A stretch of DNA of 64,000 nucleotides. It comes from an uncultured virus (IMG/VR IMGVR_UViG_3300032270_000884). Its lineage: Duplodnaviria > Heunggongvirae > Uroviricota > Caudoviricetes. Below the pieces are notes generated by a model. That model was not told the origin of the DNA. It searched no databases and saw only the letters and a list, made by a program, of their open reading frames with translations. The translations under genes and the position numbers were made by a program. The stretch is from IMG/VR virus record IMGVR_UViG_3300032270_000884. One strand, written 5' to 3'. Shown piece by piece: positions 3,252 to 61,021 of the stretch (the stretch's first letter is position 1; every line of letters starts with the position of its first letter).

Positions 3252-4301
3252 ATGAAAATAGCTGTGTACACAATCGCTTTAAACGAAGAACAGTTTGTAG
3301 AACGTTGGTATGAATCAGCTAAAGAGGCTGACTACCTACTTATTGCTGACACTGGCTCTACTGATGGCACTGTTGCCCTTGCTAAAAGTCTTGGAATCAA
3401 TGTAGTTGAAATTTCAATCAAACCGTGGAGATTTGATGATGCTCGTAATGCTAGCCTCGCTTGTCTTCCTAGGGATATTGATTACTGCATTGCTTTGGAT
3501 CTCGACGAAGTTCTAGTTGAAGGTTGGCGTAGTCACCTAGAGGCTGTCCCAACACAAACAACACGACCACGGTACAAGTACACGTGGAGTTGGAACACTG
3601 ACGGAACTCCGGGACTGCAATACGGCGGAGATAAGATCCACTCTCGTCACGGGTACCGCTGGAAGCATCCTGTACACGAGGTTATGGTTGCCGATCGTAT
3701 TATTCCAATAGAGCACTGGACTAATCTTGAAATCCACCATCATCCAGACAACTCAAAACCTAGGTCTCAATACATGCCTTTGCTAGCTCAGTCTGTTGTA
3801 GAAGACCCGTACGATGATCGTAATGCTTTTTACTACGCTCGTGAACTATTCTTTTATGGAGAATACGAAAAAGCTACCGAAGAATTTAAAAGGCATCTAA
3901 AGCTTCCTAGAGCAGTATGGAAACCAGAACGAGCCGCGTCTATGCGATACATAGCAAAAATGGAGGACGAGTTTGAAACCTCTGAGTGGTGGTTACGGCA
4001 AGCAATTGCGGAAGCACCTGACCGTCGGGAGGCGTACGTTGAGATGGCTAAACTGTGCTATGAAAATAAACTGTGGTCAGAGTGCTTAGACGCCGCAGAG
4101 CGTGCTATTGCTATTACTGAAAAACCTCTTGAATACCTATGCGAAGAGTTTGCTTGGGGCTTTGCTCCTTACGACTATGCTGCTATTGCTGCTTACAACT
4201 TAGGGTTTACAGATGTAGCGCTTAAATACGGCATGGAAGCGGTGGACCTTAACCCGACAGACGAGCGCTTGCAGCGTAACCTTATATTCTATAAAGCATA
4301 G
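3252..4301 (+). CDS. GT2 glycosyltransferase with C-terminal TPR repeats
   Basis: IALNEE, ADTGSTDGT, FDDARN, DLDE (DxD), VHE motifs; helical TPR-like C-terminus. Confidence 0.9.
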   Translation: MKIAVYTIALNEEQFVERWYESAKEADYLLIADTGSTDGTVALAKSLGINVVEISIKPWRFDDARNASLACLPRDIDYCIALDLDEVLVEGWRSHLEAVPTQTTRPRYKYTWSWNTDGTPGLQYGGDKIHSRHGYRWKHPVHEVMVADRIIPIEHWTNLEIHHHPDNSKPRSQYMPLLAQSVVEDPYDDRNAFYYARELFFYGEYEKATEEFKRHLKLPRAVWKPERAASMRYIAKMEDEFETSEWWLRQAIAEAPDRREAYVEMAKLCYENKLWSECLDAAERAIAITEKPLEYLCEEFAWGFAPYDYAAIAAYNLGFTDVALKYGMEAVDLNPTDERLQRNLIFYKA

Positions 4302-42883: not shown

Positions 42884-43333
42884 GTGGCAGTTTTAATTTA
42901 CATCGACGGAGTATTGTCGAACGATAAAGGCGTAGCAATTACGCAAGGGCTGGGGCTCACGAGAACCCTTCAGCAAACACTTGCCGTTATTCTTTTGGCT
43001 AAAGATAAAGAAAAAGCAGACCACTGGCTCAAACAGAACAGCATGGGAAAGATTGACAACCTTGTTGGAGCTGTTCCCGGTGGAGATAACGACCCGTTTA
43101 GACAGGCGGAATGGTGCCGTTCTCAAGGACCAATCGATTACGTAATTACTTCCGATCCTGCGCTTTCCGCTAAATTATTAGAACACGGATTCAGGGTTCT
43201 TTTATTCCTTGATCCAATTTATATTGACCATAAGTTTCGCCCAGATAGCCTTGAGGGTAGGAAGAGCTGGAAAGACATAACCGCTGAGCTTAATAAGCAG
43301 GCTGATATGTATTTGGAAGACCCACGTAAGTGA
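42884..43333 (+). CDS. HAD-like protein (degenerate motif I)
   Basis: VLIYIDGVL. Confidence 0.55.
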   Translation: MAVLIYIDGVLSNDKGVAITQGLGLTRTLQQTLAVILLAKDKEKADHWLKQNSMGKIDNLVGAVPGGDNDPFRQAEWCRSQGPIDYVITSDPALSAKLLEHGFRVLLFLDPIYIDHKFRPDSLEGRKSWKDITAELNKQADMYLEDPRK

Positions 43334-44790
43334 AGATTATTTACCTTGGGGCAGAGGTCCCCAGCAACCGCATTCTTTTAGGCTCGGCTGGAGCCCGCTC
43401 AGTAGGCGTCAGTTACTGGCGACTAATGAAACGCGGTTTGCCCAAAACTAAAATTTATTTATTAGAAAGCTACTTTCCAGAAGACATGGAGATTCTGGTT
43501 CATCCCGGTATTCCTAGAACTCAGGAGATTAGCCGTACCGAACTTGAAGAGTTTGCTGCTGACTATGAGGAATTCATTGTTAACAACGTTGATCGACTTA
43601 CTCAATTCACAGAGATTAACCACTTTCAGGTAAGCCCTGACTTTGTTAGGAATCAGCGGGAAACCGTATGGGCAGAGATGCCACCAGCCAAGTTCCTGCC
43701 TGTATGGAACCCTCAAACAGGTCAGAAAGGTCTTGAGGAACTGACCGCCAAGTACTTAGACGTAGCCCTTCCCGGCGAGTCGCTAGAGGACCACACATGG
43801 CTTTCAGGAGCCACACAAAGGCTCGTAAGGACAGAAGGAAGCCGCTTCCACGCTCTTGGCACGGCTCGACCAGATAACCTGCGTCAGGTGCCCGTAGAGA
43901 GCGCTGCCACACTTTCATGGTTATCACCCATGACCCGTGGTGAAACTATTATTTGGGACGGTACCAGATTGGTACGATACCCAAAGAGCATGAAAGAACA
44001 GGCTCGTCCACGCCACAAGGCTGTGTACGAAAAGGCAGGGGTTGAGTTCGACAAAATTGTCGGAGATGATTCCGAAGAGCTTTGTAAATTAGCAGTCTGG
44101 TCATTTGATCAGTTAGAGATGAGGTTAACCAAAGTGGGCAACATATCCGATATGTTCGAGGATCCAGCAGGTGATGATTATGCGGAAAACGTCCCAGTAG
44201 TATCGGATAGGTCGGGGGTTGAGATGCGGAAAGTTCAACCACGCAATCCTGATGAAATGGGCAATTTACCTGTCTTTGGATTTGAAATAAAGACCATTGT
44301 TGAACGTGATGAATCAGGGAATGACGTACTAAAAGATGTCCCAGTAGTTCAGTCACATGACACAAGTTTAAGACAGTGCGATACATGCTTTATTGCCTCA
44401 AACTGTCCTGCTTTTAAACCTCAAAACACTTGTGCGTTTAAGCTTCCAATTGAAGTAAAGACTAAAGACCAACTTAAGAGTTTGATTAACGCAATCATTG
44501 AAATGCAGGGCCAAAGAGTGGCTTTTATGCGATTTGCGGAAGAAATGAATGGCGGATACGCTGACCCAAATGTTAGCCAAGAGATTGATCGGTTGTTTAA
44601 ATTGATTAAGACAACCAAGGAATTGGATGACTCAAGAGAGTTCATTAGGATGACCGTAGAGCGCCAAGGAAACGCTGGAGTTTTGTCCCAAATCTTTGGT
44701 GAGAAAGCTCAAATCCTTAAAGAAATACCTAACGGTGGGATCAGCGAAAGTGACACAACTAAGATAATTCAGCAGGCAATAGAAGAATAA
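43330..44790 (+). CDS. TGT/queuine-tRNA-ribosyltransferase-like barrel with C-terminal Cys4 domain
   Basis: IIYLG start, FLPVW, VAL, RFHALG, V.SA.T.SW...RG segments; CDTC....CP......C. Confidence 0.5.
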   Translation: MKIIYLGAEVPSNRILLGSAGARSVGVSYWRLMKRGLPKTKIYLLESYFPEDMEILVHPGIPRTQEISRTELEEFAADYEEFIVNNVDRLTQFTEINHFQVSPDFVRNQRETVWAEMPPAKFLPVWNPQTGQKGLEELTAKYLDVALPGESLEDHTWLSGATQRLVRTEGSRFHALGTARPDNLRQVPVESAATLSWLSPMTRGETIIWDGTRLVRYPKSMKEQARPRHKAVYEKAGVEFDKIVGDDSEELCKLAVWSFDQLEMRLTKVGNISDMFEDPAGDDYAENVPVVSDRSGVEMRKVQPRNPDEMGNLPVFGFEIKTIVERDESGNDVLKDVPVVQSHDTSLRQCDTCFIASNCPAFKPQNTCAFKLPIEVKTKDQLKSLINAIIEMQGQRVAFMRFAEEMNGGYADPNVSQEIDRLFKLIKTTKELDDSREFIRMTVERQGNAGVLSQIFGEKAQILKEIPNGGISESDTTKIIQQAIEE

Positions 44791-47742: not shown

Positions 47743-47911
47743 AGAAACATTTAAGTGTTCGTGGATCTCGTGGCGTTACCGTGTCACATTCAAAGCATTG
47801 TTCCCACGGAATCAGCCGGTATTTCTGATCCAGGTAGTGATCAACAGCAGGCATACCACCAGCGTTATGTAACTCAATAATCTTATTCTTAAGATTTTCC
47901 ATTAAGTCCAT
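47717..47911 (-). CDS. hypothetical protein
   Basis: start at ATG 47911 behind GGAGG; CFEC. Confidence 0.6.
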   Translation of the reverse strand: MDLMENLKNKIIELHNAGGMPAVDHYLDQKYRLIPWEQCFECDTVTPRDPRTLKCFFEEEHYED

Positions 47912-48437
47912 TGTCCACCTCCACCAATCTGTTGATAATCCATTGAACAACAGGCACTGCAACAGCATTACCCATTTGCTTATATCGTTGTGAATCAGAC
48001 TGTGTGTCAGTCCAACCATCAGGGAACCCCTGTAAGCGCTCGCACTCTACTGGAGTAAGTCTACGAACAGTTGCATCTTCATACGCCAACGTGTCTTTAG
48101 CACGTCGAGCATTAAGACTTGGCGAAACATCTTCTTTAGGGAAGTCATACAACTCAAAGTTTCCTACTTGTGCCACATCACTATCCGTTCTTGCCACCAT
48201 TGGCATATTGTTTCCACCTGTGCCCATGCGGGCCTGTAACGTATTGATAACCGCGCCTTGCATTCTTAGATCATCCACACGATTACCATAGAAGATAAGA
48301 ACTGTAGCTCTTGTGTCTCCATTGTTATCAAAAGCGTTGAGTGTTGGAGTTACATCTCCATCTACCCATGTCTCGAAATCATCCACGTTCTGCGCTCTCC
48401 TACTCTTGATGTACCACAAGGTGACCACTATCCACAT
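47889..48437 (-). CDS. C5 DNA methyltransferase C-terminal part (TRD repeats, motifs IX-X)
   Basis: RRLTPVECERLQGFPD, YKQMGNAV; MGTGGNN. Confidence 0.85.
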   Translation of the reverse strand: MWIVVTLWYIKSRRAQNVDDFETWVDGDVTPTLNAFDNNGDTRATVLIFYGNRVDDLRMQGAVINTLQARMGTGGNNMPMVARTDSDVAQVGNFELYDFPKEDVSPSLNARRAKDTLAYEDATVRRLTPVECERLQGFPDGWTDTQSDSQRYKQMGNAVAVPVVQWIINRLVEVDNGLNGKS

Positions 48438-49134
48438 CTTGGTTGACTACTGTTGCATGATGGTAAATCTCAGCAGGAATAGCGTTTGCTACTTTGCGCC
48501 CATGCCCCGCTCTAGTGCTGAGTGGAGTAGCGCTGGCAATGACTTTCCTCTTTTTGTCGCTCGTCTCAAGATGCCCTCGCATGCCTTCGATGAGAGCAAG
48601 TACTTCTGAAGGTGCACTCCCGTCGTTTCCAAGACATCCAACAATGAAGACTCTACGGCGTCTTTGGGCGACTCCAAAGTGCTGAGCGTCAAGAATCCTG
48701 TATGCGACCCCATACCCGCGCTCAACCAACGCCCCGATAACGGTTCCCATGTCTCTTCCGTCGTTAGATGACAATAAACCGGGGACGTTTTCGAGGATGA
48801 ACCACTTCGCTTTGGTTTCGTCGAGGATGCGACAGATTTCCCAAAAGAGTCCTGACCGAGATCCAGCGAGTCCTGCCCGTTTACCCGCAACGCTGAGGTC
48901 TTGGCAAGGGAAGCCTCCGACAATAATTCCTTCACTACCGTTGAATCCGAGTTCTCTAAGTTGATCACCTGTTACATCCTTTACATCGTTGATAAGTGTT
49001 GAGTTTGGAAATTGTTTTGCTAGTACAGCTCGTGCATGTTTATCGATTTCACATGATGCAACGACTGATACACCAGCACGTTCCAACGCTAAATCAAATC
49101 CACCTACACCAGCGAATAAAGATACGGCTTTCAT
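48400..49134 (-). CDS. C5 DNA methyltransferase N-terminal catalytic part (motifs I-VIII)
   Basis: LFAGVGG, GGFPCQD, ENVPG, QRRRRVFIVG. Confidence 0.93.
   Translation of the reverse strand: MKAVSLFAGVGGFDLALERAGVSVVASCEIDKHARAVLAKQFPNSTLINDVKDVTGDQLRELGFNGSEGIIVGGFPCQDLSVAGKRAGLAGSRSGLFWEICRILDETKAKWFILENVPGLLSSNDGRDMGTVIGALVERGYGVAYRILDAQHFGVAQRRRRVFIVGCLGNDGSAPSEVLALIEGMRGHLETSDKKRKVIASATPLSTRAGHGRKVANAIPAEIYHHATVVNQDVDSGHLVVHQE
48489..48968 (-). CDS. nested alternative-frame methyltransferase-associated polypeptide
   Basis: 159-aa same-strand frame inside the catalytic ORF ending SSLLDVLE...KYLLSSKACEGILRRA..RGK.LP. Confidence 0.65.
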   Translation of the reverse strand: MINLENSDSTVVKELLSEASLAKTSALRVNGQDSLDLGQDSFGKSVASSTKPKRSGSSSKTSPVYCHLTTEETWEPLSGRWLSAGMGSHTGFLTLSTLESPKDAVESSLLDVLETTGVHLQKYLLSSKACEGILRRATKRGKSLPALLHSALERGMGAK

Positions 49135-49355
49135 TCATCCACATCCTTAAGATATTCAAGAGTTCTCTCAGCTTCCATGATGTATATAAGAACGCTGTTT
49201 ATATCCTCTTGTGTTAATGGTTGAGGTAATTCTTGAAGGGCACAACGTGCTGCCACGAGGTTGGCGCCTACTAATCCTTTAACGGTTAGCGTTGCATCCT
49301 CGAATGTACCTGTTTTAAGCATATGGATCATGATTGCATCTTTAGTTGAAATCAT
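49131..49355 (-). CDS. hypothetical protein
   Basis: 74 aa, ATGA overlaps. Confidence 0.6.
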   Translation of the reverse strand: MISTKDAIMIHMLKTGTFEDATLTVKGLVGANLVAARCALQELPQPLTQEDINSVLIYIMEAERTLEYLKDVDE

Positions 49356-49495
49356 TCGTCCTCTCCCACTTTGATGATATGAAGTCGCCCTTCTTCCTGC
49401 AACGATTGCAGTATCTGTTCTTTTGTATCTTTGTCCGAAAATTTTGAATACACCTTCGGCTTTGATTCAATAGGTATTACAGTCTCAAAATCCAT
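49352..49495 (-). CDS. 47-aa hypothetical protein
   Basis: MDFETVIPIESKPKVYSKFSDKDTKEQILQSLQEEGRLHIIKVGEDE fills the gap with overlaps. Confidence 0.55.
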   Translation of the reverse strand: MDFETVIPIESKPKVYSKFSDKDTKEQILQSLQEEGRLHIIKVGEDE

Positions 49496-49751
49496 GAACG
49501 TCAGCCTCATCTGCTATTTCTGACCACTTGTTAATAACATCGTGAATCATCCATAAGCATTGATCATCTGAATAGACTTCACCATCAAGGTCACGAATTG
49601 ACCCAACAATATCTAATACACGACCATTGAGTTCATCTGCTGGAATCTTGCCCTCTCGCAGGTCATCTACATCAGCCATGACCTCCGCCAGTGATGGCGG
49701 GTCGCCCAAAAATTGCTCGCCATTGCTGTCGTATCTAATAATGCGACTCAT
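49485..49751 (-). CDS. acidic hypothetical protein
   Basis: 88 aa, coupled. Confidence 0.65.
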   Translation of the reverse strand: MSRIIRYDSNGEQFLGDPPSLAEVMADVDDLREGKIPADELNGRVLDIVGSIRDLDGEVYSDDQCLWMIHDVINKWSEIADEADVHGF

Positions 49752-49996
49752 GCGCTCACCTTCTTACTTGCATCGACCTTGGCTTGAGAATAGCCCTTGG
49801 AGTGCCAACCTGCCCAAAACTTGGCATAGGTCGCATCTACATATAACTTGATTACTTCTTCTTGTTGCTTGCTGGTGAGGGCTGGACGTACTAGGTCCAT
49901 AAGGGCATGAAATGCCACTTCGCTCTCTTTCTCGTGCTTAGCTTCTTCTTCTAGGTGGTACTCGATTACATGATCGAACATAGTTCCGTATTCCAT
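49748..49996 (-). CDS. hypothetical protein, first gene after promoter P1
   Basis: GGGAG RBS. Confidence 0.7.
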   Translation of the reverse strand: MEYGTMFDHVIEYHLEEEAKHEKESEVAFHALMDLVRPALTSKQQEEVIKLYVDATYAKFWAGWHSKGYSQAKVDASKKVSA

Positions 49997-50086
49997 TTGT
50001 TTCTCCCTTTGTGAGTGGTAGGTGGCGGCTTTTCATATACAAGGTGAAACATCGCCTTAAACGACCTCAACGCGTTTACAAAGAGA

Positions 50087-50141
50087 ACATTAGGGCCATG
50101 AGGCTTAGTGGCCAATAGGATTTGATGTGACGTGCATCACG
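50087..50141 (-). promoter_or_regulatory. cassette promoter P1 with CRP-like box
   Basis: -35 TTGGCC, 17 nt, -10 TAATGT; TGTGACGTGCATCACG 10 nt upstream of -35. Confidence 0.8.
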
Positions 50142-50339
50142 CTGGCGAAAGGGCGCTTAATAGATTTACATCTCCTTGTTTTAATTAGAGAGAGCCTATT
50201 CAAGAGAGATATAGAGAGGGATTGAGTGTGCTCATACGATCTCTGCTTGATTAGTCTCTCATCTAGCCAGAGATGGCTACATATGCGTATATGTTTCTGG
50301 GAAACAGGCTGTAGAGCTGGTTGCACGACTGCTGGGTCA

Positions 50340-50355
50340 TGTGATGTGGCTCACA
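50340..50355. promoter_or_regulatory. isolated CRP-like box
   Basis: TGTGA-TGTGGC-TCACA. Confidence 0.65.
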
Positions 50356-50401
50356 GTAGCCTAATTAGCAGATTTGTCGACATTTAATGTCGGCTATATG
50401 G

Positions 50402-50464
50402 CTCTCTCTACTCTCTCTCTCTCTCCTTCTCTCTCTCTTCAGCTCATTCTCTCTTATCTCTCTC
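50402..50464. repeat. (CT)n polypyrimidine tract
   Basis: about 60 nt almost entirely C/T. Confidence 0.85.
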
Positions 50465-50572
50465 GAGATCGCAAATTCCCGGTGGAATGAGCCAGAATGG
50501 GTCAACAAAGCTGAGTCGGTACGACTCAACTCTCTCTGCTGTGGCCAGGATCACTACAAAAGCTATTGACAA

Positions 50573-50628
50573 AGCTCTCTCTTTACCCTATCCCGAAGGG
50601 ATAAGGGGAGGGTGGGCCAACACAAACA
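50573..50628 (+). repeat. hairpin/G-tract/CCAACACAAACA element copy 1
   Basis: GCTCTCTC...TATCCC GAA GGGATA...GGGGAGGGTGGG CCAACACAAACA. Confidence 0.85.
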
Positions 50629-50661
50629 TTTGGATGGGTGTAGGCTAAAAAAAACAACCAT

Positions 50662-50708
50662 AAAAAAAGAAAAAGCTCCCGGCAGGAGGGCTAACTACCG
50701 CCGGGAGC
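50662..50708 (-). terminator. cassette terminator
   Basis: GCTCCCGGC...GCCGGGAGC stem with adjacent A run on + (U run on -). Confidence 0.8.
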
Positions 50709-50806
50709 GTGTGCTCTACTCGTCTCCGAGGAGCAACTCTGTGTCTTCTAGGGCATCGATGATCTCTAATCCCTCTCTAAGTACTTGATCCATTAACACC
50801 AGGAAT

Positions 50807-51082
50807 TCATTCGTCATAGTCTACCCATGGATCCAGGTGATGAGCGTCCACTATTGCATAAGCTGGCGCCTCTTTCTGGCCTTTCCATAGTACGCCATCG
50901 GGTAACGTGATTAAGCGCTCGCGCTCGCCATCGTTAACGGCCGTGATGGCATCGATGCATGGGAATACCATGCTAGTCGGTACCGGCGGGTAATGATTAT
51001 TTTGCAGCTGTATCTTAATTTGGTGCTGTAGCCCGAGGTCGTGTGTACCTCCAGCTAGCTCTAGTGCCAGGTTTCTTCCCAT
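50807..51082 (-). CDS. hypothetical protein
   Basis: 91 aa, GGGGAG RBS. Confidence 0.7.
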   Translation of the reverse strand: MGRNLALELAGGTHDLGLQHQIKIQLQNNHYPPVPTSMVFPCIDAITAVNDGERERLITLPDGVLWKGQKEAPAYAIVDAHHLDPWVDYDE

Positions 51083-51092
51083 ATCTCTCCCC

Positions 51093-51794
51093 TTATCGTT
51101 TACTTATTGAGAATGTAATGTTTGCGTCGGCCTTTAGGCAGATTCTGCATGCGACGCATGCGCCCTCTAGTGGAATTTGCTTCCGCTGTTCCGGACACTT
51201 AGCGCCTCTCTCGCCTAATTCCATGAGCATGTCTTTCGCTTGAGCAAAAGTCTCATGTAATCCGGCCAGCTTGATACCGTGCTCTTTCAATCTCTTAGCC
51301 GATTCGATATTCTCGCTATCGGTTGAGAAATATAACGCTAGGTTATCCATGCCCTTGAGCATATACGCGGCAGATTCTACACGTGTGTATACCCAAAATA
51401 GGATATCCGGGTTATTTAGAATAACGTGCTTCCATGCGAATGCATAGTCTGGCTTAAAGAAATCCCCGTCCCAATGGATCCGGAATTCTTTAGGCGCATC
51501 CCATTTATCGCATTCCTTGCGAAAGTCTGCAATCATGTCCATTAATAGCGCTTCCATAGTGTCATGGTCCGCGTCTCTCAATAAATCCCAATTATGGATG
51601 AGATTAGCCTTAACGCCACTATAAATTTTCTCTAGCTTGCCCGCGTAGCATATGCGTGTGCATATACTAGTGGCGCTAGGGCATGAATATGCCTTACCCG
51701 CCGGGAGACCGAAAGAATTCGCTATTCTTACGCCGCCCGATGCGGTGAGTGAATTAGCTACCTTGCGGTCCTTACTACGTTTTAATTTCTCCAT
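51093..51794 (-). CDS. GP88-like (radical-SAM-related) protein
   Basis: SF.LPAG...CP.AT..C...CYA, FRIHWDGDF, FWVYTR, C-terminal CP...C..C..C. Confidence 0.75.
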   Translation of the reverse strand: MEKLKRSKDRKVANSLTASGGVRIANSFGLPAGKAYSCPSATSICTRICYAGKLEKIYSGVKANLIHNWDLLRDADHDTMEALLMDMIADFRKECDKWDAPKEFRIHWDGDFFKPDYAFAWKHVILNNPDILFWVYTRVESAAYMLKGMDNLALYFSTDSENIESAKRLKEHGIKLAGLHETFAQAKDMLMELGERGAKCPEQRKQIPLEGACVACRICLKADANITFSISKR

Positions 51795-51843
51795 GATTAG
51801 CCCTCTCTCTTTCATTCCTTATTTAACCCTAGGGCCCTCTAGT

Positions 51844-51953
51844 GGCCAATAGCATTTGCTGTGATATAGGTCACACCTGGATGAGCTTCTCTCTCCAACA
51901 ACTCCCTTACGAAGTAAGTGAGAAACAGGGCGGGAGGGTTTCCAACACAAACA
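51844..51953. repeat. promoter P2 + CRP box + element copy 2
   Basis: GGCCAA 51844, TGTGATATAGGTCACA 51860-51875, GGGCGGGAGGG, CCAACACAAACA 51942-51953; -10 atypical. Confidence 0.85.
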
Positions 51954-51995
51954 AAGCGCGACCCCAGCGGCCGGAGCCGCCAGGATCGCACCGGG

Positions 51996-52175
51996 CTATT
52001 TATTAATCAGAGCTTCCAATTCATAGAGAGCATCTGTGTACCCTTCCCAGTACTTTCTCTCCATGGATTCCATAGCATCTGAATATCCATTCTCTTCCTC
52101 GATTGTTTTAGCATCTAGGTAGGCTGCTGACCCTTCGACCAGCAGCCGTCCCACGATGCTTAATGCGTCAGGCAT
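51996..52175 (-). CDS. hypothetical protein
   Basis: AMESMERKYWEG..DAL; start about 52175. Confidence 0.6.
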   Translation of the reverse strand: MPDALSIVGRLLVEGSAAYLDAKTIEEENGYSDAMESMERKYWEGYTDALYELEALINK

Positions 52176-52626
52176 CTTCCCAATCAGCTGAGCTAACTGC
52201 CCAGCTATCACAGCTCGAATCTCCCGAGCTGGTATCTACTGAGACCCAATCACTGATCCAGGTCTCTGCATCGAAATCTTCTACTTCATCCATTGGTAGC
52301 TCAACCGTAACTTCTACTTCAATTACAGCTGTGATCCGAATTTCAGCTTTTGGTTCGTAACCCAGGATCTCCTGCAAAGCAGCCAGGATCTCCGATGCTT
52401 CTGTATTCGGGTTATACCAATCGTTGCGGGTCATGTGCTCCTGGATCGAAGCTATTGTGGCCCGGAGCTTTTGAGCTTCGGTGCGAGCTTCGCGCCCTTG
52501 GTGCAGCGTCCACTCGAGGTCCACTACCTTGTCGGTAATGTATTCTGGTGCTTCTGGTTCAGCATAGGTGCCAGCTATCTTTTTATAAGTAACTAGCGCA
52601 TTTGGGTTATATGTATCGACGCTCAT
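52168..52626 (-). CDS. acidic hypothetical protein
   Basis: start at ATGA overlap 52626. Confidence 0.65.
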   Translation of the reverse strand: MSVDTYNPNALVTYKKIAGTYAEPEAPEYITDKVVDLEWTLHQGREARTEAQKLRATIASIQEHMTRNDWYNPNTEASEILAALQEILGYEPKAEIRITAVIEVEVTVELPMDEVEDFDAETWISDWVSVDTSSGDSSCDSWAVSSADWEDA

Positions 52627-52868
52627 GCCTTCACCCCCTTGAGCATTGCATTGAGCTCGGCCTTGATTCGGCGAGCATTCTCTCCTCTCCATGAGGTGAG
52701 ATTAGCAAGCGCATATAACACTATTGATTCAGCGCTATCAGCGAAGTAAGTATCGCTAATTGAATTTAGCGATTTCATTGGTGTCACATATGCTTCTGCA
52801 TATACGTACCAATCCTTGGTACTGCATTCCCACTCAATCTCTTGAGCGATTTCATTCAGTGCTCTCAT
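52623..52868 (-). CDS. conserved phage protein
   Basis: R.L.EIA.EI...YFADSA.SIV.Y.L.N..SWRGE.AR.IKAEL. Confidence 0.7.
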   Translation of the reverse strand: MRALNEIAQEIEWECSTKDWYVYAEAYVTPMKSLNSISDTYFADSAESIVLYALANLTSWRGENARRIKAELNAMLKGVKA

Positions 52869-52906
52869 GTAGCCCTCCCAGTGAATGACCGTCATCCACT
52901 AAGAGC

Positions 52907-53034
52907 AACTTATGCCCACTCTCTCTAGTGGCCAATGGCTTTTGCTGTTATCTACATCACACCCAGGATCGAGCTCTCTCTTACCCATTCCCTGAAAGGG
53001 TTAGACAGGGTGGGAGGGCTGTCCAACACAAACA
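52907..53034. repeat. promoter P3 + CRP-like box + element copy 3
   Basis: -35 TTGGCC/17/-10 TAAGTT on - strand; TGTTATCTACATCACA; GGGTGGGAGGG; CCAACACAAACA 53023-53034. Confidence 0.85.
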
Positions 53035-53104
53035 TTAGGCATCGGGAAAAGAAGTTTTGGCGCCCTAAAAAACCGGGCAGCTGATCGAGCAGCTGGATCC
53101 AGGT

Positions 53105-53139
53105 AAAGAAAAACGCCCCCAGCTTTTGGCTGAGGGCGC
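53105..53139 (-). terminator. cassette terminator
   Basis: CGCCCCCAGC TTTTG GCTGAGGGCG stem next to A run. Confidence 0.75.
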
Positions 53140-53223
53140 TTCTCTAATCACCACACGGTTCGTCGTGCTTGTGAATCCAAGAACACTTGTCACATGTCTC
53201 TTCCCACTCACGCATCACGGCCA

Positions 53224-53775
53224 TTAGGCCGTGACCTTATTCTTCTCAAAGCGATTTACTATGCCTTCTGGTAATGGCTCGTATGGGTCAATAAGGAATG
53301 TCTTGCTGGTGAACTTTCCATCAACCATGTCAGACTCGAAGTGCATGTATTTGTATGGCTCAGGTTCGTCCCATCTGCGAATTTCACCTGATACGAATAA
53401 CTTGCCGTCCTTGACAAGGTATAACCAGCGCTCGCCTTCTTCCCCACTCCATTCCATTTCAGAACCATCTTTGACGAATGGTGCAAGGACTGCGAGTAGT
53501 AAATCTTCTTGACCTGTTTTGTTGTTGTATCCATCTATAGAGAATGTCCCTTGACTTTCTGATGTCTCGAATCCGAAAGCGTTGACAATCTCTTCTGCTT
53601 TAGTGGCACTCTCAAATTCAGAATCATTGACCCATGAGAACCATGACTCTCCACCTGATGAACCGCCACGCTTGATGCTGTGATACTTGGTTGGCATTTC
53701 TTTTAGAGTTGCCAATAATTCAGGAGATTCGGTAAGTTCCCAATCTGATGAATGTAAAGATACGTAGTAACCCAC
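53224..53775 (-). CDS. hypothetical protein
   Basis: GTG start 53775 behind GGGCTAAC; LAPFVKDGS.MEW.GEEG..W. Confidence 0.7.
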   Translation of the reverse strand: MGYYVSLHSSDWELTESPELLATLKEMPTKYHSIKRGGSSGGESWFSWVNDSEFESATKAEEIVNAFGFETSESQGTFSIDGYNNKTGQEDLLLAVLAPFVKDGSEMEWSGEEGERWLYLVKDGKLFVSGEIRRWDEPEPYKYMHFESDMVDGKFTSKTFLIDPYEPLPEGIVNRFEKNKVTA

Positions 53776-53815
53776 GTTAGCCCTTCTCTCTCTTAGCACC
53801 TTGCTAAGTAGTAGA

Positions 53816-53947
53816 ACCTTCTCATGCATGGCCCTAGTCACCAATGACATTTGTAGTGATTCACATCACACCTGGATCCGAGCTACCCGGTGAGCTTCTC
53901 TCATACATACATACTCCCTAAACGGGGTGGGAGGGCCAACACAAACA
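53816..53947. repeat. promoter P4 + CRP-like box + element copy 4
   Basis: -35 TTGGTG/17/GAAGGT; AGTGATTCACATCACA; GGGGTGGGAGGG; CCAACACAAACA 53936-53947. Confidence 0.85.
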
Positions 53948-54030
53948 AACGCGCCGGGCGAGCTGCCCGGGATCTCAGCTGTATTAGTGGGCCATTTTAA
54001 AGTGTGGCCCAGCACTCTCGTAGTTTGGGG

Positions 54031-54213
54031 CTAACGAGAAACCTTTACCTGCCCCAGTCTCTCAGGAACGTATGTCGTCCAACGGATCACGAGATCCGCG
54101 GTCAACAACTTCAATCTAGTGGAGCCCGTGTCATTTGGCACGATTTCCATGATTACTCCAGTAACGCCAGTCTTTTGCGTAGTGTAGGTATCACCTACTT
54201 CTAATCTAGGCAT
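54031..54213 (-). CDS. small SH3-like beta protein (paralog of 38469-38672)
   Basis: VGDTYTTQKTGVTGVIMEIVPNDTGSTR...RWTT. Confidence 0.7.
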   Translation of the reverse strand: MPRLEVGDTYTTQKTGVTGVIMEIVPNDTGSTRLKLLTADLVIRWTTYVPERLGQVKVSR

Positions 54214-54457
54214 TGAGTGTCCTCACTTCTCCACCTTGCGGATGCTCCGCAGGTAGTGCTAGTCCGAACAAGAATCCCCCGCCATTACCCTCAGGGTCCT
54301 GCGATACTGAGATTAGTCCAATCTCACCATTAGCGAATTGAACGGTGAACTCAGGGAACCCGTCACCTAAATCATCCTCGGTATTCATACCGTCGAATGA
54401 TAGGATGCGAGCGCCTACGAATGAACCGTAATACCGCTTCCAAAAATCATCTGCCAT
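54206..54457 (-). CDS. hypothetical protein
   Basis: SQDPEGNGGGFLF motif; start 54457. Confidence 0.7.
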   Translation of the reverse strand: MADDFWKRYYGSFVGARILSFDGMNTEDDLGDGFPEFTVQFANGEIGLISVSQDPEGNGGGFLFGLALPAEHPQGGEVRTLNA

Positions 54458-54501
54458 GTTAGCCCCCATTCGTTAGATACTGTGCTTCTCTAACAAGATG
54501 A

Positions 54502-54619
54502 ACACTATGCCCTAGCGCTTTACTCACCAATAGCATTTGTAGTGATGTGCGTCACAGCTTCTCTCTCCTACCTTCCCTGTAAGGGAAAGGATCAGGGCGG
54601 GTGGGATCCAACACAAACA
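54502..54619. repeat. promoter P5 + CRP box + element copy 5
   Basis: -35 TTGGTG/17/-10 TAGTGT; AGTGATGTGCGTCACA; GGGCGGGTGGG; CCAACACAAACA 54608-54619. Confidence 0.85.
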
Positions 54620-54661
54620 AATAGGCTAGGCATTGGGAAAATAATGTATTTTGGCATCCCT

Positions 54662-54695
54662 AAAAAAATAGAGCGCCCCCCGAAGGGAGCGCCCT
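54662..54695 (-). terminator. cassette terminator
   Basis: GCGCCCCC CGAA GGGAGCGC stem beside A run. Confidence 0.7.
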
Positions 54696-54711
54696 ACTTA
54701 TTGGCTAGGGG

Positions 54712-55170
54712 CTAAGCGATAGCCAACTCTTCTTCGACCTTGAAGGTTTCTACAACCTTTGGGTGCAACTCGTTACGCATTGAAGCGAACGCGTCTTTTG
54801 ACCAACCTGCTTTGAACACTCGGTCAAGCAACTTAGCAAGTGAATACTCAGGGTCGAGCAACTGCGCTTGCATAAGTGATACATAAGCCAACTCGTTATC
54901 GCCAGCCTCATAATAGAACGCTGAGAGAACTGTATAAAACGGTGAGCGGTGACCTTCTTCTACTAACGGAAGGATTTCGGTGACGAACTTAATCGCGCCT
55001 TCTGCTCCGAAAGTAATGGGTGCGTGTCCTAGTAGGTAATCACGAACCTGTAAATCCTGAATTGAATACACTAGTAAATTAACTGCATTTACTGGCAACG
55101 GCTCAGACTTTACAAACGCCTCTACAATTTCATTGTAAGCGTCTAGTGCTTGCTTATTTGTTAATTTCAT
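54712..55170 (-). CDS. DUF4192-like protein
   Basis: DLQVRDYLLG ... YSLAKLL.RV...GW. Confidence 0.65.
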   Translation of the reverse strand: MKLTNKQALDAYNEIVEAFVKSEPLPVNAVNLLVYSIQDLQVRDYLLGHAPITFGAEGAIKFVTEILPLVEEGHRSPFYTVLSAFYYEAGDNELAYVSLMQAQLLDPEYSLAKLLDRVFKAGWSKDAFASMRNELHPKVVETFKVEEELAIA

Positions 55171-55219
55171 TTCTTAGCCCCTCTTTCGTAAGTTACTTCC
55201 GTTTCACTTACTAACCCGA

Positions 55220-55343
55220 ACATTACAACCGCCTCTATTAGTCACCAATACCTTTTGCTGTGATGTGCGTCACATAGCTGAACTCTCTCCTCCCGATCCC
55301 TTTAGGGATAGGACACTGGGAGGGTGGGTGTCCAACACAAACA
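55220..55343. repeat. promoter P6 + CRP box + element copy 6
   Basis: -35 TTGGTG/17/-10 TAATGT; TGTGATGTGCGTCACA; GGGAGGGTGGG; CCAACACAAACA 55332-55343. Confidence 0.87.
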
Positions 55344-55397
55344 TTTTGGCGAGCCGCGCCGCCCCAGGCCGGAGCCTGGAGCAGCGAGCCGCTTCTC

Positions 55398-55817
55398 TTA
55401 TAGATACCTTGCTATGGATTTCATAGTTGAGGCATTTACTGTTTCTTCTTCGGTCATACGCAAGATGCTAAGGGCATTTGTAATGTCCTCTTTCATCTCT
55501 TTGTATTCGTGAAGGTGGATTTTGTCGTGTTCCCGCACGGGTTCTTTTGGAAACTCATTGCCATCAACTGTGAGGTCAAAATCAACATTGAGAGTCTTGT
55601 TCCACTCCCGATAGTTGGTTCTAACATTAGAAGCCTTTGAGAAGCGGTCAATAGCCCACTTTCCAATTTCTTTGCGCCACGCTTCCATAGCGTTTTGGTA
55701 TTGAGCATCATTGGACTCTTGAGAAGCAAAATCCAACTCAATTTTTTCCAACTTTGCTTGTAGAGCAGTTATTACTTTTGCTGTTGGAACTTTTACTGTT
55801 ATTGCTTTTGATGCCAT
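55398..55817 (-). CDS. hypothetical protein
   Basis: 139 aa, GGAGGGCTAA leader. Confidence 0.7.
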   Translation of the reverse strand: MASKAITVKVPTAKVITALQAKLEKIELDFASQESNDAQYQNAMEAWRKEIGKWAIDRFSKASNVRTNYREWNKTLNVDFDLTVDGNEFPKEPVREHDKIHLHEYKEMKEDITNALSILRMTEEETVNASTMKSIARYL

Positions 55818-55820
55818 TGT

Positions 55821-56087
55821 TTAGCCCTCCACTAGATTTTTAGTTGCGACATAATCAACGAAGTTAGACGCACCAGCCATACGAGAAACCATTGCTAGAG
55901 TTTCCAGTATTTGTAATGCCTCATCTCGTTCCATTCCCGCTTGGGTCATAGCGTGTGCGCCAGCCTGAATAAGCAAGTCTGAAAAGGGTGCTAGATTATT
56001 TTCTAGAAACTTTACTTCATCTCTAGAGAGGTCATCTACTCTTGCGATAAGGTCAAACACTTTGTATGCCTTCTGTTCTTCCATCAT
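55821..56087 (-). CDS. hypothetical protein
   Basis: 88 aa, GGGGCTAA leader. Confidence 0.7.
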   Translation of the reverse strand: MMEEQKAYKVFDLIARVDDLSRDEVKFLENNLAPFSDLLIQAGAHAMTQAGMERDEALQILETLAMVSRMAGASNFVDYVATKNLVEG

Positions 56088-56131
56088 TGTTTAGCCCCAA
56101 TTCGTTAGGGTCGTTCGCCCTAACTAAGAGA

Positions 56132-56248
56132 ACCTTCTCATCTCCTGCCCTAGTGCCCAATACCATTTGCTGTTAGATACATCACACCGCTCTCTCCACC
56201 CTTCCCTTTAGGGATTAGGTACTGGGAGGGCGGGTACCAACACAAACA
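56132..56248. repeat. promoter P7 + CRP-like box + element copy 7
   Basis: -35 TTGGGC/17/GAAGGT; TGTTAGATACATCACA; GGGAGGGCGGG; CCAACACAAACA 56237-56248. Confidence 0.85.
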
Positions 56249-56264
56249 TTTGGCGCGACATGGC

Positions 56265-56300
56265 AAAGCGCCCCGCCCCTGAACGGAGAGGCGAGGCGCT
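56265..56300 (-). terminator. cassette terminator
   Basis: AGCGCCCCGCCCCT...AGAGGCGAGGCGCT stem. Confidence 0.7.
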
Positions 56301-56312
56301 GTACCTGTTCGC

Positions 56313-56774
56313 TTACCAACTAGATCGGTAAGAGAATTCCCAATCATCTGAGATTGCTAGGCACTTCTCGACGATTTCAATCGTGCGCTTTAGGTTCTCG
56401 TAGTACCACTCATCTCGTTCGGCATTACCGAAGAAGAAGCCTGAAGCTGGTTCAAGTAGTCCAGCGCCACGAGTGTTAGCAGTAACCAAAAGCTCTAACT
56501 TACAGTTATCTCGCAACTGTTCTAACTGTTCTCGTGATACATAGTGAGGACGGCACTCGTCCTCGCCACCCTGAACTTCCTTCACGAACCAGTTATGAAT
56601 TGCGTTAGCCTTGCGCCAGTATCCAACTGTGAATTGGATTTCAATAGATGGGCTATCTTCGGTGACCTGAACATCAGGATACATTGAAGAGATAGCGTTG
56701 AACTCGCTGGTGTCCTTCATATGAGACCAGCCACCAACATACTTACGAGCGTGAAGATACATATCAAGACCCAT
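56313..56774 (-). CDS. conserved phage protein
   Basis: MGLDMYL...YWRKANAIHNWFV...GFFFG...Y.SSW. Confidence 0.8.
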   Translation of the reverse strand: MGLDMYLHARKYVGGWSHMKDTSEFNAISSMYPDVQVTEDSPSIEIQFTVGYWRKANAIHNWFVKEVQGGEDECRPHYVSREQLEQLRDNCKLELLVTANTRGAGLLEPASGFFFGNAERDEWYYENLKRTIEIVEKCLAISDDWEFSYRSSW

Positions 56775-56775
56775 T

Positions 56776-56961
56776 TTATTTTTCCTCCCAAGTGAAGTCG
56801 CACATCACGCCTTCGATAGTCTGCTTACAAGATGATTGGTCAATGACTTGATGATGAGTAGAGATGAATACAACCCCAGCGACTACGGCAGAGATAGCCA
56901 TAACGAACGCCGAGAACAACAAGGAAGCGAATACTATTTCGCCTCGTGGTGTTAGTTTCAT
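56776..56961 (-). CDS. small membrane protein
   Basis: MKLTPRG followed by a hydrophobic helix. Confidence 0.7.
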   Translation of the reverse strand: MKLTPRGEIVFASLLFSAFVMAISAVVAGVVFISTHHQVIDQSSCKQTIEGVMCDFTWEEK

Positions 56962-57006
56962 TTGTTAGCCCCATTTCATTGGTAGTCGTTCGCTACCAAT
57001 AAGACA

Positions 57007-57105
57007 ACCATAGGGGCGAGCGTGTTAGTCACCAAGACCATTTGCTGTGGTGTTCGTCACATCTACATAGAAAGACCCCCCCACCCTTAAGTGACTTGCG
57101 TCACA
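57007..57105 (-). promoter_or_regulatory. promoter P8 with two CRP-like boxes
   Basis: -35 TTGGTG/17/-10 TATGGT; TGTGGTGTTCGTCACA 57046-57061; AGTGACTTGCGTCACA 57090-57105. Confidence 0.8.
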
Positions 57106-57148
57106 GAAAGGGGGCCCAGGCCACAAAAACAAGATTCACATACACGGG

Positions 57149-58024
57149 TCACACAGTAGCCTTAAATTCTTCAGGTAGTTTCTTATTTTTGCTGAGATTG
57201 CATTTTCCGTGAGATGGTCTGACGTTGTGAAGAGCATCTGGCCCTCCACGAGAAATAGGGATTACATGATCAAATTGAAGACCTTTTTCCCAACCGGGTT
57301 GCCCAGGTTGCCGTGCAGCGTTCATGTCAATATCTAATTCGCATATGTAGCAAATTGTGCCGTGGATGGCTAGTACATCTTGCTCGGTATACTTATCAAA
57401 GCCATTCTTAAGTCTGGTAGCACGTCTTCTTCGCTCCATAGCTCTTCGCTTTTCAGGAAACTGTGCATAATACTTTTTAGAGTACTCAGCCCTTTTGTCC
57501 TTATTTCTTTGGTATGCCTCACGATTTCTTCGTGCATGGGCTACTGGATCAGCTAATTTGCGCTTACGGTTATATTCCCTAAGCTTGGCACGATTCTCTT
57601 TGCCATACTTTTTTGCTCGTGCTTTTACCTTCTCAGGGTTGTTCTTCCTGTATCGTTTCTGTAGCTCGCTTGCTTTTTTCTTTCGTTGCTTTTCTTTAGC
57701 AATATCTTCAGCAATTTCTTCAGGGGTAGGGTTGGTTAATCGCCTTACCCGTTCAAGCTCTTTTAACCTAATGCGCTCTTCACGCTCAGCGGAATAATAT
57801 AGTTTTTTATGGTATTCCTTAACAGCTGCTTTTTTCTCAGGTTTGGCTAAATATGCGTTTTTGTATTGCTTATTCTTATCTGGTTTTTTCTTGTGGTACT
57901 CCCTACGGTATTCCCTCATAGCCTCTCTGCAGGGCAGGCACAGTTCTTCTCCCCTTTTACGGTGAATCTTGTACCCTGCATATGTGCCGCATCGTTCATT
58001 TACGGTTGCGGGGGACTTTTCCAT
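57149..58024 (-). CDS. HNH endonuclease with basic helical repeats
   Basis: CGTYAGY..H...C..C N-terminus; CYIC...FDHVIPISRGG....NVRPSH..CN..K. Confidence 0.9.
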   Translation of the reverse strand: MEKSPATVNERCGTYAGYKIHRKRGEELCLPCREAMREYRREYHKKKPDKNKQYKNAYLAKPEKKAAVKEYHKKLYYSAEREERIRLKELERVRRLTNPTPEEIAEDIAKEKQRKKKASELQKRYRKNNPEKVKARAKKYGKENRAKLREYNRKRKLADPVAHARRNREAYQRNKDKRAEYSKKYYAQFPEKRRAMERRRRATRLKNGFDKYTEQDVLAIHGTICYICELDIDMNAARQPGQPGWEKGLQFDHVIPISRGGPDALHNVRPSHGKCNLSKNKKLPEEFKATV

Positions 58025-60588: not shown

Positions 60589-60728
60589 TGTGTGCTACAT
60601 GTGGTTGCGGAATGCCTAAGAATAAGCATGGTCAAAAGACCCTAGCTAAGGCTAATAAAAAGTTTGATAAGAAGAAGGCTTGTACCTGCGGTACTTGCAA
60701 GGCGTGTAAAGCTAAAAAGAAGAAGTAA
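60588..60728 (+). CDS. 46-aa Cys/Lys-rich metallothionein-like peptide
   Basis: GTG start; CATCGCG...CTCGTCKAC. Confidence 0.6.
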   Translation: MCATCGCGMPKNKHGQKTLAKANKKFDKKKACTCGTCKACKAKKKK

Positions 60729-61021
60729 TGGCTGAGACAAAGAAGTTTGGTCCATACAAGGGTTCCGATGCTAATGGCGGACGCCCTATTTATGTCTACA
60801 AGAAAAAAGTAGGCGATAAGTGGGTTACCACTTCGAAGAACAAGGCTCGTGCAGATTATGAGTCAAAGAATGGAAAGATTAAGTCCAAGGATATTACTGT
60901 TGACCACAAGGACAATAATCACAATAATGACTCTAAGGGCAATTTAAGAGCAATATCTAGAAGCAAGAACACAGCAAAAGAAAACAAGCGCCGCGCAGGT
61001 AAAAAGGAGAATGAAAAATAA
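60728..61021 (+). CDS. small HNH-motif protein
   Basis: VDHKDNN..ND...NLR.ISRS.N. Confidence 0.75.
   Translation: MAETKKFGPYKGSDANGGRPIYVYKKKVGDKWVTTSKNKARADYESKNGKIKSKDITVDHKDNNHNNDSKGNLRAISRSKNTAKENKRRAGKKENEK

Follow-up and report, generated by a model that had tools for sequence, protein, structure and literature searches.

When the same composite non-coding module stands before every small gene cassette of a phage region, does it only direct expression, or is it also the joint at which cassettes are exchanged? The 64,000-nucleotide (nt) DNA of the uncultured virus IMGVR_UViG_3300032270_000884 (IMG/VR; this whole stretch is called the window below) raises this question, as an array of short cassettes, each with its copy of such a module, occupies its minus strand from 57140 to 50087. 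The module has a constant anatomy and a fixed spacing, it is conserved across a family of related phages, and cassette order changes between relatives with breakpoints at its boxes. We consider it likely that the array is a modular, presumably early region of autonomous units that are shuffled by recombination at these conserved boxes.

Anatomy of the repeated module

Reading the minus strand from 57140 down to 50087, and giving each operator start as its highest coordinate, we found eight predicted promoters of identical spacing: a 16-nt TGTGA-N6-TCACA box (the putative operator), 10 nt, a TTGGnn hexamer, 17 nt and a -10-like hexamer. The operators start at 57061, 56186, 55274, 54556, 53870, 52961, 51875 and 50141. 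The 10-nt gap holds CAAA (G/A/T-CAAA..), and the -10-like hexamer reads TAnnGT or (T/G)AnnnT, with A at position 2, T at position 6 and mostly TC next to it. The TTGGnn and (T/G)AnnnT hexamers keep their 17-nt distance in 8/8 units, and their positions are also conserved in relatives. At one mismatch or fewer, TGTGA-N6-TCACA has 10 matches in the 64-kb window, all within 50126-57105; two mismatches add 23 more, and the total of 33 is at chance level (shuffles mean 31.3).

A candidate ribosome-binding site (RBS), GGGCTA(A), lies 1-4 nt upstream of the first start codon in 7/7 short cassettes and also precedes an internal gene at 55817; genes elsewhere in the window mostly carry AAGGAG/GGAG-type sites rather than GGGCTAA. 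A near-copy of the cassette RBS, AGGCTAA(G/A)TAATG, stands at the starts of three plus-strand genes outside the array (30342, 40014 and 59080). The leaders of the array units are 26-49 nt long, with a hairpin in six of the seven short-cassette leaders. Strong hairpins are present in the 3' regions of 7/7 units (-25 to -45 kcal/mol; z -1.1 to -5.9), where termination is predicted; a terminator scan flagged five of them. Rfam covariance models gave three matches, below the gathering score and all on terminator hairpins, and none on the leaders or on the spacer described next.

Between each terminator and the next promoter lies a spacer of 53-66 nt, here called H, whose seven copies consist of the box TGTTTGTGTTGG, a CCCNCCCNCCC tract, a small hairpin and AGAGAG. 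Its box is named below as the exact 12-mer (TGTTTGTGTTGG), the invariant box TGTTTGTGTTG(G/A) or the TGTTTGTGTT box. The exact 12-mer occurs eight times in the window, seven times on the minus strand (56248, 55343, 54619, 53947, 53034, 51953 and 50628) and once at 3560 with no module around it. Two units depart from this layout: unit 1 is preceded (57140-57062) by a degenerate spacer only, without the exact 12-mer, and the eighth promoter (50141), which heads a long operon, lies ~430 nt from the last spacer across non-coding DNA and has the RBS AAAGGGAG instead of GGGCTAA. With eight predicted promoters of identical spacing and seven copies of H, the sequence-only reading of eight minus-strand units sharing a composite module was confirmed. 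The features are as follows, where G002 is a related record discussed in the next section and ORF stands for open reading frame.

57062..57140, minus: degenerate spacer-like stretch before unit 1, TTGTTTTTGTGG..CCCCC..GGGGGGG, with an extra operator-like box at 57105-57090
57007..57061, minus: predicted unit 1 promoter; operator 57061-57046, -35-like hexamer 57035-57030, -10-like hexamer 57012-57007
56313..56961, minus: unit 1 cargo, ORFs of 61 and 153 amino acids, then a GC-rich hairpin at 56315-56249
56190..56248, minus: spacer H(a), with TGTTTGTGTTGG, a stem GGTAC/GTACC around CCGCCCTCCCA, TCCCTAAAGGGA and AGAGAG; core 100% identical to G002
55398..56186, minus: unit 2; operator 56186-56171, -10-like hexamer 56137-56132, leader hairpin, GGGGCTAA
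56087-55821 and 55817-55398, minus: unit 2 ORFs, followed by a GC hairpin
55283..55343, minus: spacer H(b); core 100% identical to G002 despite swapped flanking units
54620..55274, minus: unit 3; operator 55274-55259, -10-like hexamer 55225-55220, leader, predicted terminator with a T run
55170-54712, minus: unit 3 ORF (DUF4192); complement of the RBS, CTTAGCCCC, at 54716-54708
54560..54619, minus: spacer H(c)
53948..54556, minus: unit 4; operator 54556-54541, -10-like hexamer 54507-54502, hairpin at the 3' side
54457-54206 and 54213-54031, minus: unit 4 ORFs; complement of the RBS, GTTAGCCCC, at 54035-54027
53895..53947, minus: spacer H(d), a short form in which the closing stem is absent
53035..53870, minus: unit 5; operator 53870-53855, -10-like hexamer 53821-53816, two predicted terminator hairpins
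53775-53224 (GTG start) and 53211-53065 (small ORF), minus: unit 5 ORFs
52974..53034, minus: spacer H(e)
51954..52961, minus: unit 6; operator 52961-52946, -10-like hexamer 52912-52907, hairpin abutting the next box
52868-52623, 52692-52168 and 52211-51996, minus: unit 6 ORFs; TAGCCC at 51998-51993
51888..51953, minus: spacer H(f), replaced by another H type in G002 between orthologous flanks
50629..51875, minus: unit 7; operator 51875-51860, -10-like hexamer 51826-51821
51794-51093 (Pfam GP88), 51082-50807 and 50817-50716, minus: unit 7 ORFs; complement of the RBS, TTAGCCCTC, in the terminator loop at ~50697-50685
50575..50628, minus: spacer H(g), of the CCCTTCGGG type, which ends the array in most relatives
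50142..50574, minus: non-coding hub with GA-rich runs, operator boxes at 50555 (weak) and 50355, and the palindrome AAATGTCGACAAAT at ~50385-50372
50087..50141, minus: predicted eighth promoter with identical operator/-35/-10 spacing, heading the long operon 49996-47037, which includes a C5 DNA methylase (two ORFs)

The exact complement of the RBS motif (anti-RBS) was found after stop codons or in terminator loops in four of the seven 3' untranslated region (UTR) zones of the window (54708-54716, 54027-54035, 50685-50697 and 51993-51998). Unit 3 has CTTAGCCCC after its stop and GGGGCTAAG as its RBS, unit 4 likewise GTTAGCCCC and GGGGCTAAC; in unit 7, TTAGCCCTC occupies the terminator loop, and TAGCCC follows unit 6. 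Among ten genomes with four different RBS cores, 21/50 3'-UTR zones contained the complement of the core that the lineage itself uses, vs 5/150 for a foreign core. As the own-core complement covaries with the RBS between lineages, the pattern supports, and would be explained by, pairing of the 5' and 3' ends within each mRNA.

The hub between the last spacer and the eighth promoter (430 nt) holds long GAGAGA.. runs, CTCTCT runs further on and extra TGTGA-N6-TCACA boxes, as well as the palindrome AAATGTCGACAAAT followed by GGCTACTG. Both of these recur after the last spacer in divergent lineages (G004, G006, L011, L025 and 3300032242_002477). The hub could be an origin or a master regulatory region.

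Cassette order in relatives and the unit of exchange

Two separate records, G002 and G003, are both ~80% identical to the window and show the order u1,u3,u2,u4,u5 onward vs u1,u2,u3,u4 here. The check proposed in the sequence-only reading, whether cassette order varies among related genomes with breakpoints in the module, was thus answered in the affirmative: units 2 and 3 are swapped, and the breakpoints lie on both sides of H, where identity changes sharply. In the comparison of the window with G002, the 60 nt upstream of the box track the upstream cargo (A~M2 90%, B~M4 83%, C~M3 78%), the promoter and leader track the downstream cargo (B~M2 78%, C~M4 78%; for A~M3 a mis-called start makes the figure invalid), and the H cores keep their position (100/100/95% identity, or 98/100/95% in another measurement). 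Terminator flanks thus go with the cargo before them and promoter and leader with the cargo after them, while the H cores stay put. Traced by identity, the exchanged unit therefore extends from operator to terminator, and each edge of H is a breakpoint. The H core at 51953 has been exchanged for another H type in G002, with orthologous flanks on both sides.

Beyond this pair, 21 related stretches were compared, and the cargo families c0-c10 appear in varied orders and pairings in more than 10 contigs (the complete relative G004 and ten other contigs). Gene adjacency was kept in 52/178 genome-pair comparisons with H between the genes (29%) vs 135/241 without H (56%), counts that are based on crude ORF calls and on an H pattern so strict that degenerate copies, such as one in G002, escape it, and whose p-value is not a true probability because the genome pairs are related. 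These limits weigh against the account of units shuffled at the module, as do several further points. Breakpoints are not exclusive to the module, since 106/241 adjacencies unseparated by H were also lost. The contrast between 95-100% identity in 5/7 H cores and 47-93% in their flanks (window vs G002) indicates a constraint beyond that of a mere crossover joint. The operator is centred at about -53.5, which is neither the class I nor the class II position of CRP; the classical centres are -41.5 or -61.5. A generic sigma-70 scan missed the array promoters because their hexamers are far from TTGACA/TATAAT, and the promoters, the terminators and the timing of the array are all read from sequence. 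Finally, all relatives are metagenome assemblies.

This last point, together with a module repeated 7-8 times in 7 kb, would be expected if the swapped orders were assembly artefacts across repeats. However, module copies within the array are only 60-86% alike over 28-69 nt, and their exact stretches of about 12-20 nt were judged too short to mis-join; moreover, G002 and G003 agree as separate records, and 3300028025_002553 also has c0 before c7, being the third contig with that order. We regard mis-assembly as very improbable.

The losses of synteny inside cassettes might instead mean that the module is only a co-regulation device, with one promoter/terminator design reused and with order differences that reflect ordinary phage mosaicism. 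Cargo pairings within cassettes vary as well (c2 is found with c12, c6, c7, c3 or c0), and the exact repeats usable for homologous exchange are very short. Against this, the best-resolved swap has both of its breakpoints at H edges, adjacency across H is kept about half as often as elsewhere, and an H core has been replaced between conserved flanks, so that pure co-regulation seems to us unlikely.

Under the preferred account of shuffled units, each unit would begin with a CRP/GlxR-type 16-bp palindrome centred near -53.5 and a sigma-A/sigma-70-type promoter (TTGGnn-17-TAnnGT), continue with a 38-49-nt leader that usually starts with a stem-loop, the RBS motif GGGGCTAA and one to three small ORFs mostly without assigned function, and end, often with the RBS complement just past the stop codon, in a GC-rich terminator hairpin. 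The short invariant boxes beside variable parts would serve as crossover points for the general recombination machinery of the phage or host, and co-infecting relatives would in this way exchange, replace or lose whole units (operator to terminator) as well as H cores. The u1,u3,u2 order could arise from a single excision at the 12-mer and a single re-insertion at AGAGAG/operator, following the mini-circle scheme of the PeSL (early promoter plus stem-loop) cassettes of T4-like phages, with a putative circle. By the same analogy, general recombination at short conserved boxes is the likeliest route of the swap, because no integrase was found in relatives: a profile search of G004 and G002 with PF00589 and PF00239 detected neither a tyrosine nor a serine recombinase (0 matches), and the window ORFs scanned likewise showed no integrase. 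The sequence-only reading had noted the lack of a dedicated recombinase in the window, which was borne out, yet the window does encode general recombination proteins (UvsX/RecA-like, RuvC-like resolvase and exonucleases).

As for regulation, the array palindrome TGTGA-N6-TCACA equals the CRP/GlxR consensus and stands at an invariant distance from the -35-like hexamer, where binding is putative; the differences are its centre at about -53.5 in our own numbering and the other boxes that sister lineages carry in this slot. Neither the complete G004 nor G002 encodes a CRP-family protein (CRP helix-turn-helix, cyclic-nucleotide-binding domain), and a host factor is therefore suggested as the regulator.

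Spacer H across the family and what it may do

An IMG/VR scan with the H pattern returned 100 stretches. Among 168 distinct box sites in the fetched DNA and the relatives, 104 continue into the C-tract CCYNCCYNCC, 15 belong to long hairpins with the box and an inverted copy of it at their closing ends, and 49 resemble chance or coding matches. The distance from box to AGAGAG is 47-68 nt in 103/105 parsed H copies, and H has a uniform orientation within each of the 21/21 stretches that hold it; in G004, which is bounded by direct terminal repeats, H occurs only at 2.6-8.3 kb from one end, with five forward and no reverse copies. The box after AGAGAG differs by lineage, being TGTGA-N6-TCACA here and TTATCCACA, CGTTATC repeats or GGCGTGTCG elsewhere. 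For L001, L004, L016, L018 and L025 this place was noted as holding TTATCCACA or its complement in sister lineages, with CGTTATC repeats or GGCGTGTCG in others; we take TTATCCACA to be the DnaA-box consensus. H thus occurs across a large uncultured phage family in one orientation and with differing operator boxes; since the box that follows it changes from lineage to lineage, H is what the lineages have in common, and the regulator slot can be exchanged. The spacer is far better conserved than the sequences beside it, and we know of no described counterpart.

The spacer slot of some relatives holds another element. In L016:5753-7705 and L014:7379-8640, it contains hairpins of 81-107 nt (-26 to -56 kcal/mol) in which TGTTTGTGTTGGG and its inverted form CCCAACACAAACA make the closing stem, with interiors that vary from copy to copy; in L016 they lie directly 3' of the terminator hairpin and upstream of the promoter boxes.

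H is not a host repeat, because the H pattern was found in only four stretches of the bacterial genomes of 185,579 species, all on three short contigs of metagenome-assembled genomes (MAGs). The bins that contain these stretches (L137-L140) are labelled Ca. Nanopelagicaceae, Sphingomicrobium and Rhodoferax, and the contigs are probably of phage origin, carried into the bins. Among cultured phages, a 91-nt stretch spanning H(g) (50560-50650) had no match, and a full-text literature search for the 12-mer TGTTTGTGTTGG gave no phage paper among the 10 of 57 matches that were listed.

In 51 long-form copies of H, a stem presents the C-tract in its loop, and the 5' arm of this stem occurs in 27 versions. 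The stem covaries: the helix formed with a copy's own partner averages 4.39 bp vs 3.18 with shuffled partners (max 3.45, 200 shuffles), a per-sequence test that replaced a pair count on the MAFFT alignment of 41 long-form copies (A2), in which the stem arms were out of register. The CCCNCCCNCCC tract is accordingly displayed in the loop of a covarying stem in about half of the H copies. The short-form copies that were read, such as that at 53947, show three C runs and no more, which speaks against a four-run structure within one molecule (G-quadruplex or i-motif) as the common feature.

Three other structural readings of H were rejected. A pseudoknot between the C-tract and a downstream G-rich run showed no covariation, a complement of at least 5 nt being found with the own partner in 48.6% of 105 copies vs 44.8% for shuffled partners, a value matched or exceeded in 70/500 shuffles. 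UNCG tetraloops were considered as a sign of RNA; the CTTCGG/CTACGG strings present in 23/105 copies form loops of 3 nt, and none of the copies (0/105) has a TNCG loop with a closing stem of 4 bp or more, so that this RNA-specific signal is absent. The box can be read as (A/T)TG TTT GTG TTG, but H is not a small ORF, because the 2-6 nt between box and C-tract break the frame and an RBS is absent upstream.

Its invariant ends, its variable but structure-preserving middle, its single orientation and its intergenic position might suggest that H folds into a recombination site recognised by a dedicated enzyme, such as the HNH nuclease encoded upstream, in an integron-like platform with site-specific exchange. 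The long hairpins in the spacer slot of some relatives, H cores far more conserved than their flanks, and an HNH family (c11) that adjoins the upstream side of the array both in the window and in five further stretches (G002 and G003 being close relatives of each other) would also fit. On the other hand, the complete relative has no tyrosine or serine recombinase, the cassettes have promoters of their own, H neither moves with a cassette nor has a fixed cleavage point, HNH genes beside plastic regions are common homing elements, and binding or cutting of H by any protein is putative. We consider a dedicated enzyme improbable and return to H as a part of units shuffled by general recombination.

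The role that we tentatively place first for H, at somewhat less than even chances, is that of an inter-unit insulator, in which the box would supply a U-tract for terminators without one and the hairpin would act as a back-up terminator or a processing site for read-through RNA. With less confidence, H might be a DNA site for a protein; slightly less probable is some other function, and a crossover joint alone seems the least likely of the four. It is also conceivable, if doubtful, that H represents a new class of structured nucleic-acid element of a large uncultured freshwater actinophage family, made of an invariant G/T-rich box, the CCCNCCCNCCC tract on its covarying stem and an AGAGAG tail, and serves as the dedicated joint of a recombinase-free cassette platform. 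In the equally doubtful extension of this idea, H would insulate early units and also steer exchange at both of its edges, for instance as a hotspot of the Chi-like or nuclease-recognised kind in the genome end that enters first; these phages could then trade early genes that are ready to express, from a promoter slot that can be rewired to different host global regulators.

The phage, its cargo and known cassette systems

The window is part of a ~95-kb myovirus-like phage, probably of low-GC freshwater actinobacteria. It encodes tail sheath, tube and baseplate proteins, PolA, DnaB, a primase, UvsX/RecA-like and RuvC-like proteins, exonucleases, ribonucleotide reductase (RNR) and a DpdA-like transglycosylase, and has about 44% GC. 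For PolA, Streptomyces phages give the best matches (38-39% identity), and a Ca. Nanopelagicaceae MAG is the source of two of the four genome-collection stretches with the H pattern (one of the three contigs). On the basis of the PolA matches, the Pfam cargo and this contig, there is a weak lead to a low-GC freshwater actinobacterium as host. The cultivated Nanopelagicales phages, in the passages of PMC10202952 considered here, are 39 kb and belong to a different group.

The cargo is largely without assigned function. A PHROGs scan of 19 ORFs (49131-56961) left 15 without a family and put four into families of unknown function, Pfam matched only DUF4192 and GP88 among the array cargo ORFs, PADLOC gave 0 matches for 14 proteins, and a PDB sequence search with the GP88-family protein found nothing (best E 0.26). 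Compared with cultured phages, the 7.2-kb region shares only two short coding stretches, both in mycobacteriophages.

Some neighbouring genes were also noted. The C5 cytosine DNA methylase (47889-49134, minus) is split into two overlapping ORFs, 48400-49134 and 47889-48437, which may reflect a frameshift, a sequencing error or a true split. Two HNH endonuclease genes are present (57149-58024 and 60728-61021); the first is directly upstream of the array and has a basic, repetitive N-terminal part and a weak WhiB-like PHROG match. At 43330-44790, a queuine tRNA-ribosyltransferase (DpdA-like) gene adjoins those for an HslV-like peptidase and RNR, which hints at a possible 7-deazaguanine DNA modification.

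The closest described system is that of the PeSL cassettes of T4-like phages, composite motifs of an early promoter and a stem-loop for which, in the passages considered, mini-circles and promoter/terminator activity were shown (Arbiol et al. 2010, PMC2839356; Comeau et al. 2014, PMC4122927). As far as those passages go, the two systems share composite repeats of a stem-loop and a host-type early promoter (a candidate one here) before ORFans in a hyperplastic region, and end points of indels and replacements that fall in the motifs between close relatives, without a dedicated recombinase. Here, stem-loops stand between units in 7/7 cases, all copies in the window fall within 7 kb and precede ORFans, in a hyperplastic location matched by their confinement in G004, and the end points in relatives are in the motifs. 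The PeSL analogy drawn in the sequence-only reading was apt. The differences are that the phage belongs to another lineage (PolA-type replication with Streptomyces-phage PolA as best match, and actinobacterial leads), that sequence likeness is absent, with no DNA match to the module among cultured phages, and that the module here is longer and ordered, with a separate terminator, spacer H, a regulator box at a set distance, a leader hairpin, a special RBS and an anti-RBS. The array is an analogue of PeSL and not a member by descent.

The second analogy of the sequence-only reading, with integrons, stood in part. The array of small genes mostly without assigned function looks alike, as do separating elements that keep their structure while the middle varies. 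In contrast, each cassette has its own predicted promoter and terminator in place of promoterless cassettes read from a common promoter, the spacer does not move with the cassette, and no IntI-type integrase was found next to the array. The attC cores of integrons read RYYYAAC ... GTTRRRY; by this description the spacer invariants (TGTTTGTGTTG(G/A), C-tract, AGAGAG) differ from them, although no search for attC cores was made.

Some likeness also exists to the start-associated sequences (SAS) and extended SAS (ESAS) of Cluster K mycobacteriophages. These are asymmetric motifs at the RBS position of non-structural genes, in one orientation and often preceded by an inverted repeat, and the 13-bp SAS consensus GGGATAGGAGCCC lies 3-7 bp before start codons (Pope et al. 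2011, PMC3203893, as described in its passages considered here). Shared with the array, on that description, is a conserved motif in the RBS position, often after an inverted repeat with a variable spacer. The motif itself differs, being GGGGCTAA here and TGATAGGAG in sister lineages; GGGATAGGAGCCC has 0 matches in the window at two mismatches or fewer, and GGGCTAA holds its place. A matching complement in the 3' UTR is a further difference, as this feature was not seen in those passages of PMC3203893.

Early regions carry genes for host take-over and counter-defence. To our knowledge, the gain and re-sorting of early genes is known in mechanistic detail only for T4-like phages. The window would add a cassette solution found independently in uncultured lake phages that are abundant, and its grammar is richer and highly regular: spacer, regulator slot, promoter, leader hairpin, special RBS, anti-RBS and terminator. 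Because this regularity eases testing, the parts could readily be tried as portable expression and insulation elements for actinobacteria, and the array offers a natural system for studying how short conserved boxes steer recombination. The module's signals may drive early expression, as the sequence-only reading had proposed, and the array also suggests that early transcription is wired to global regulators of the host.

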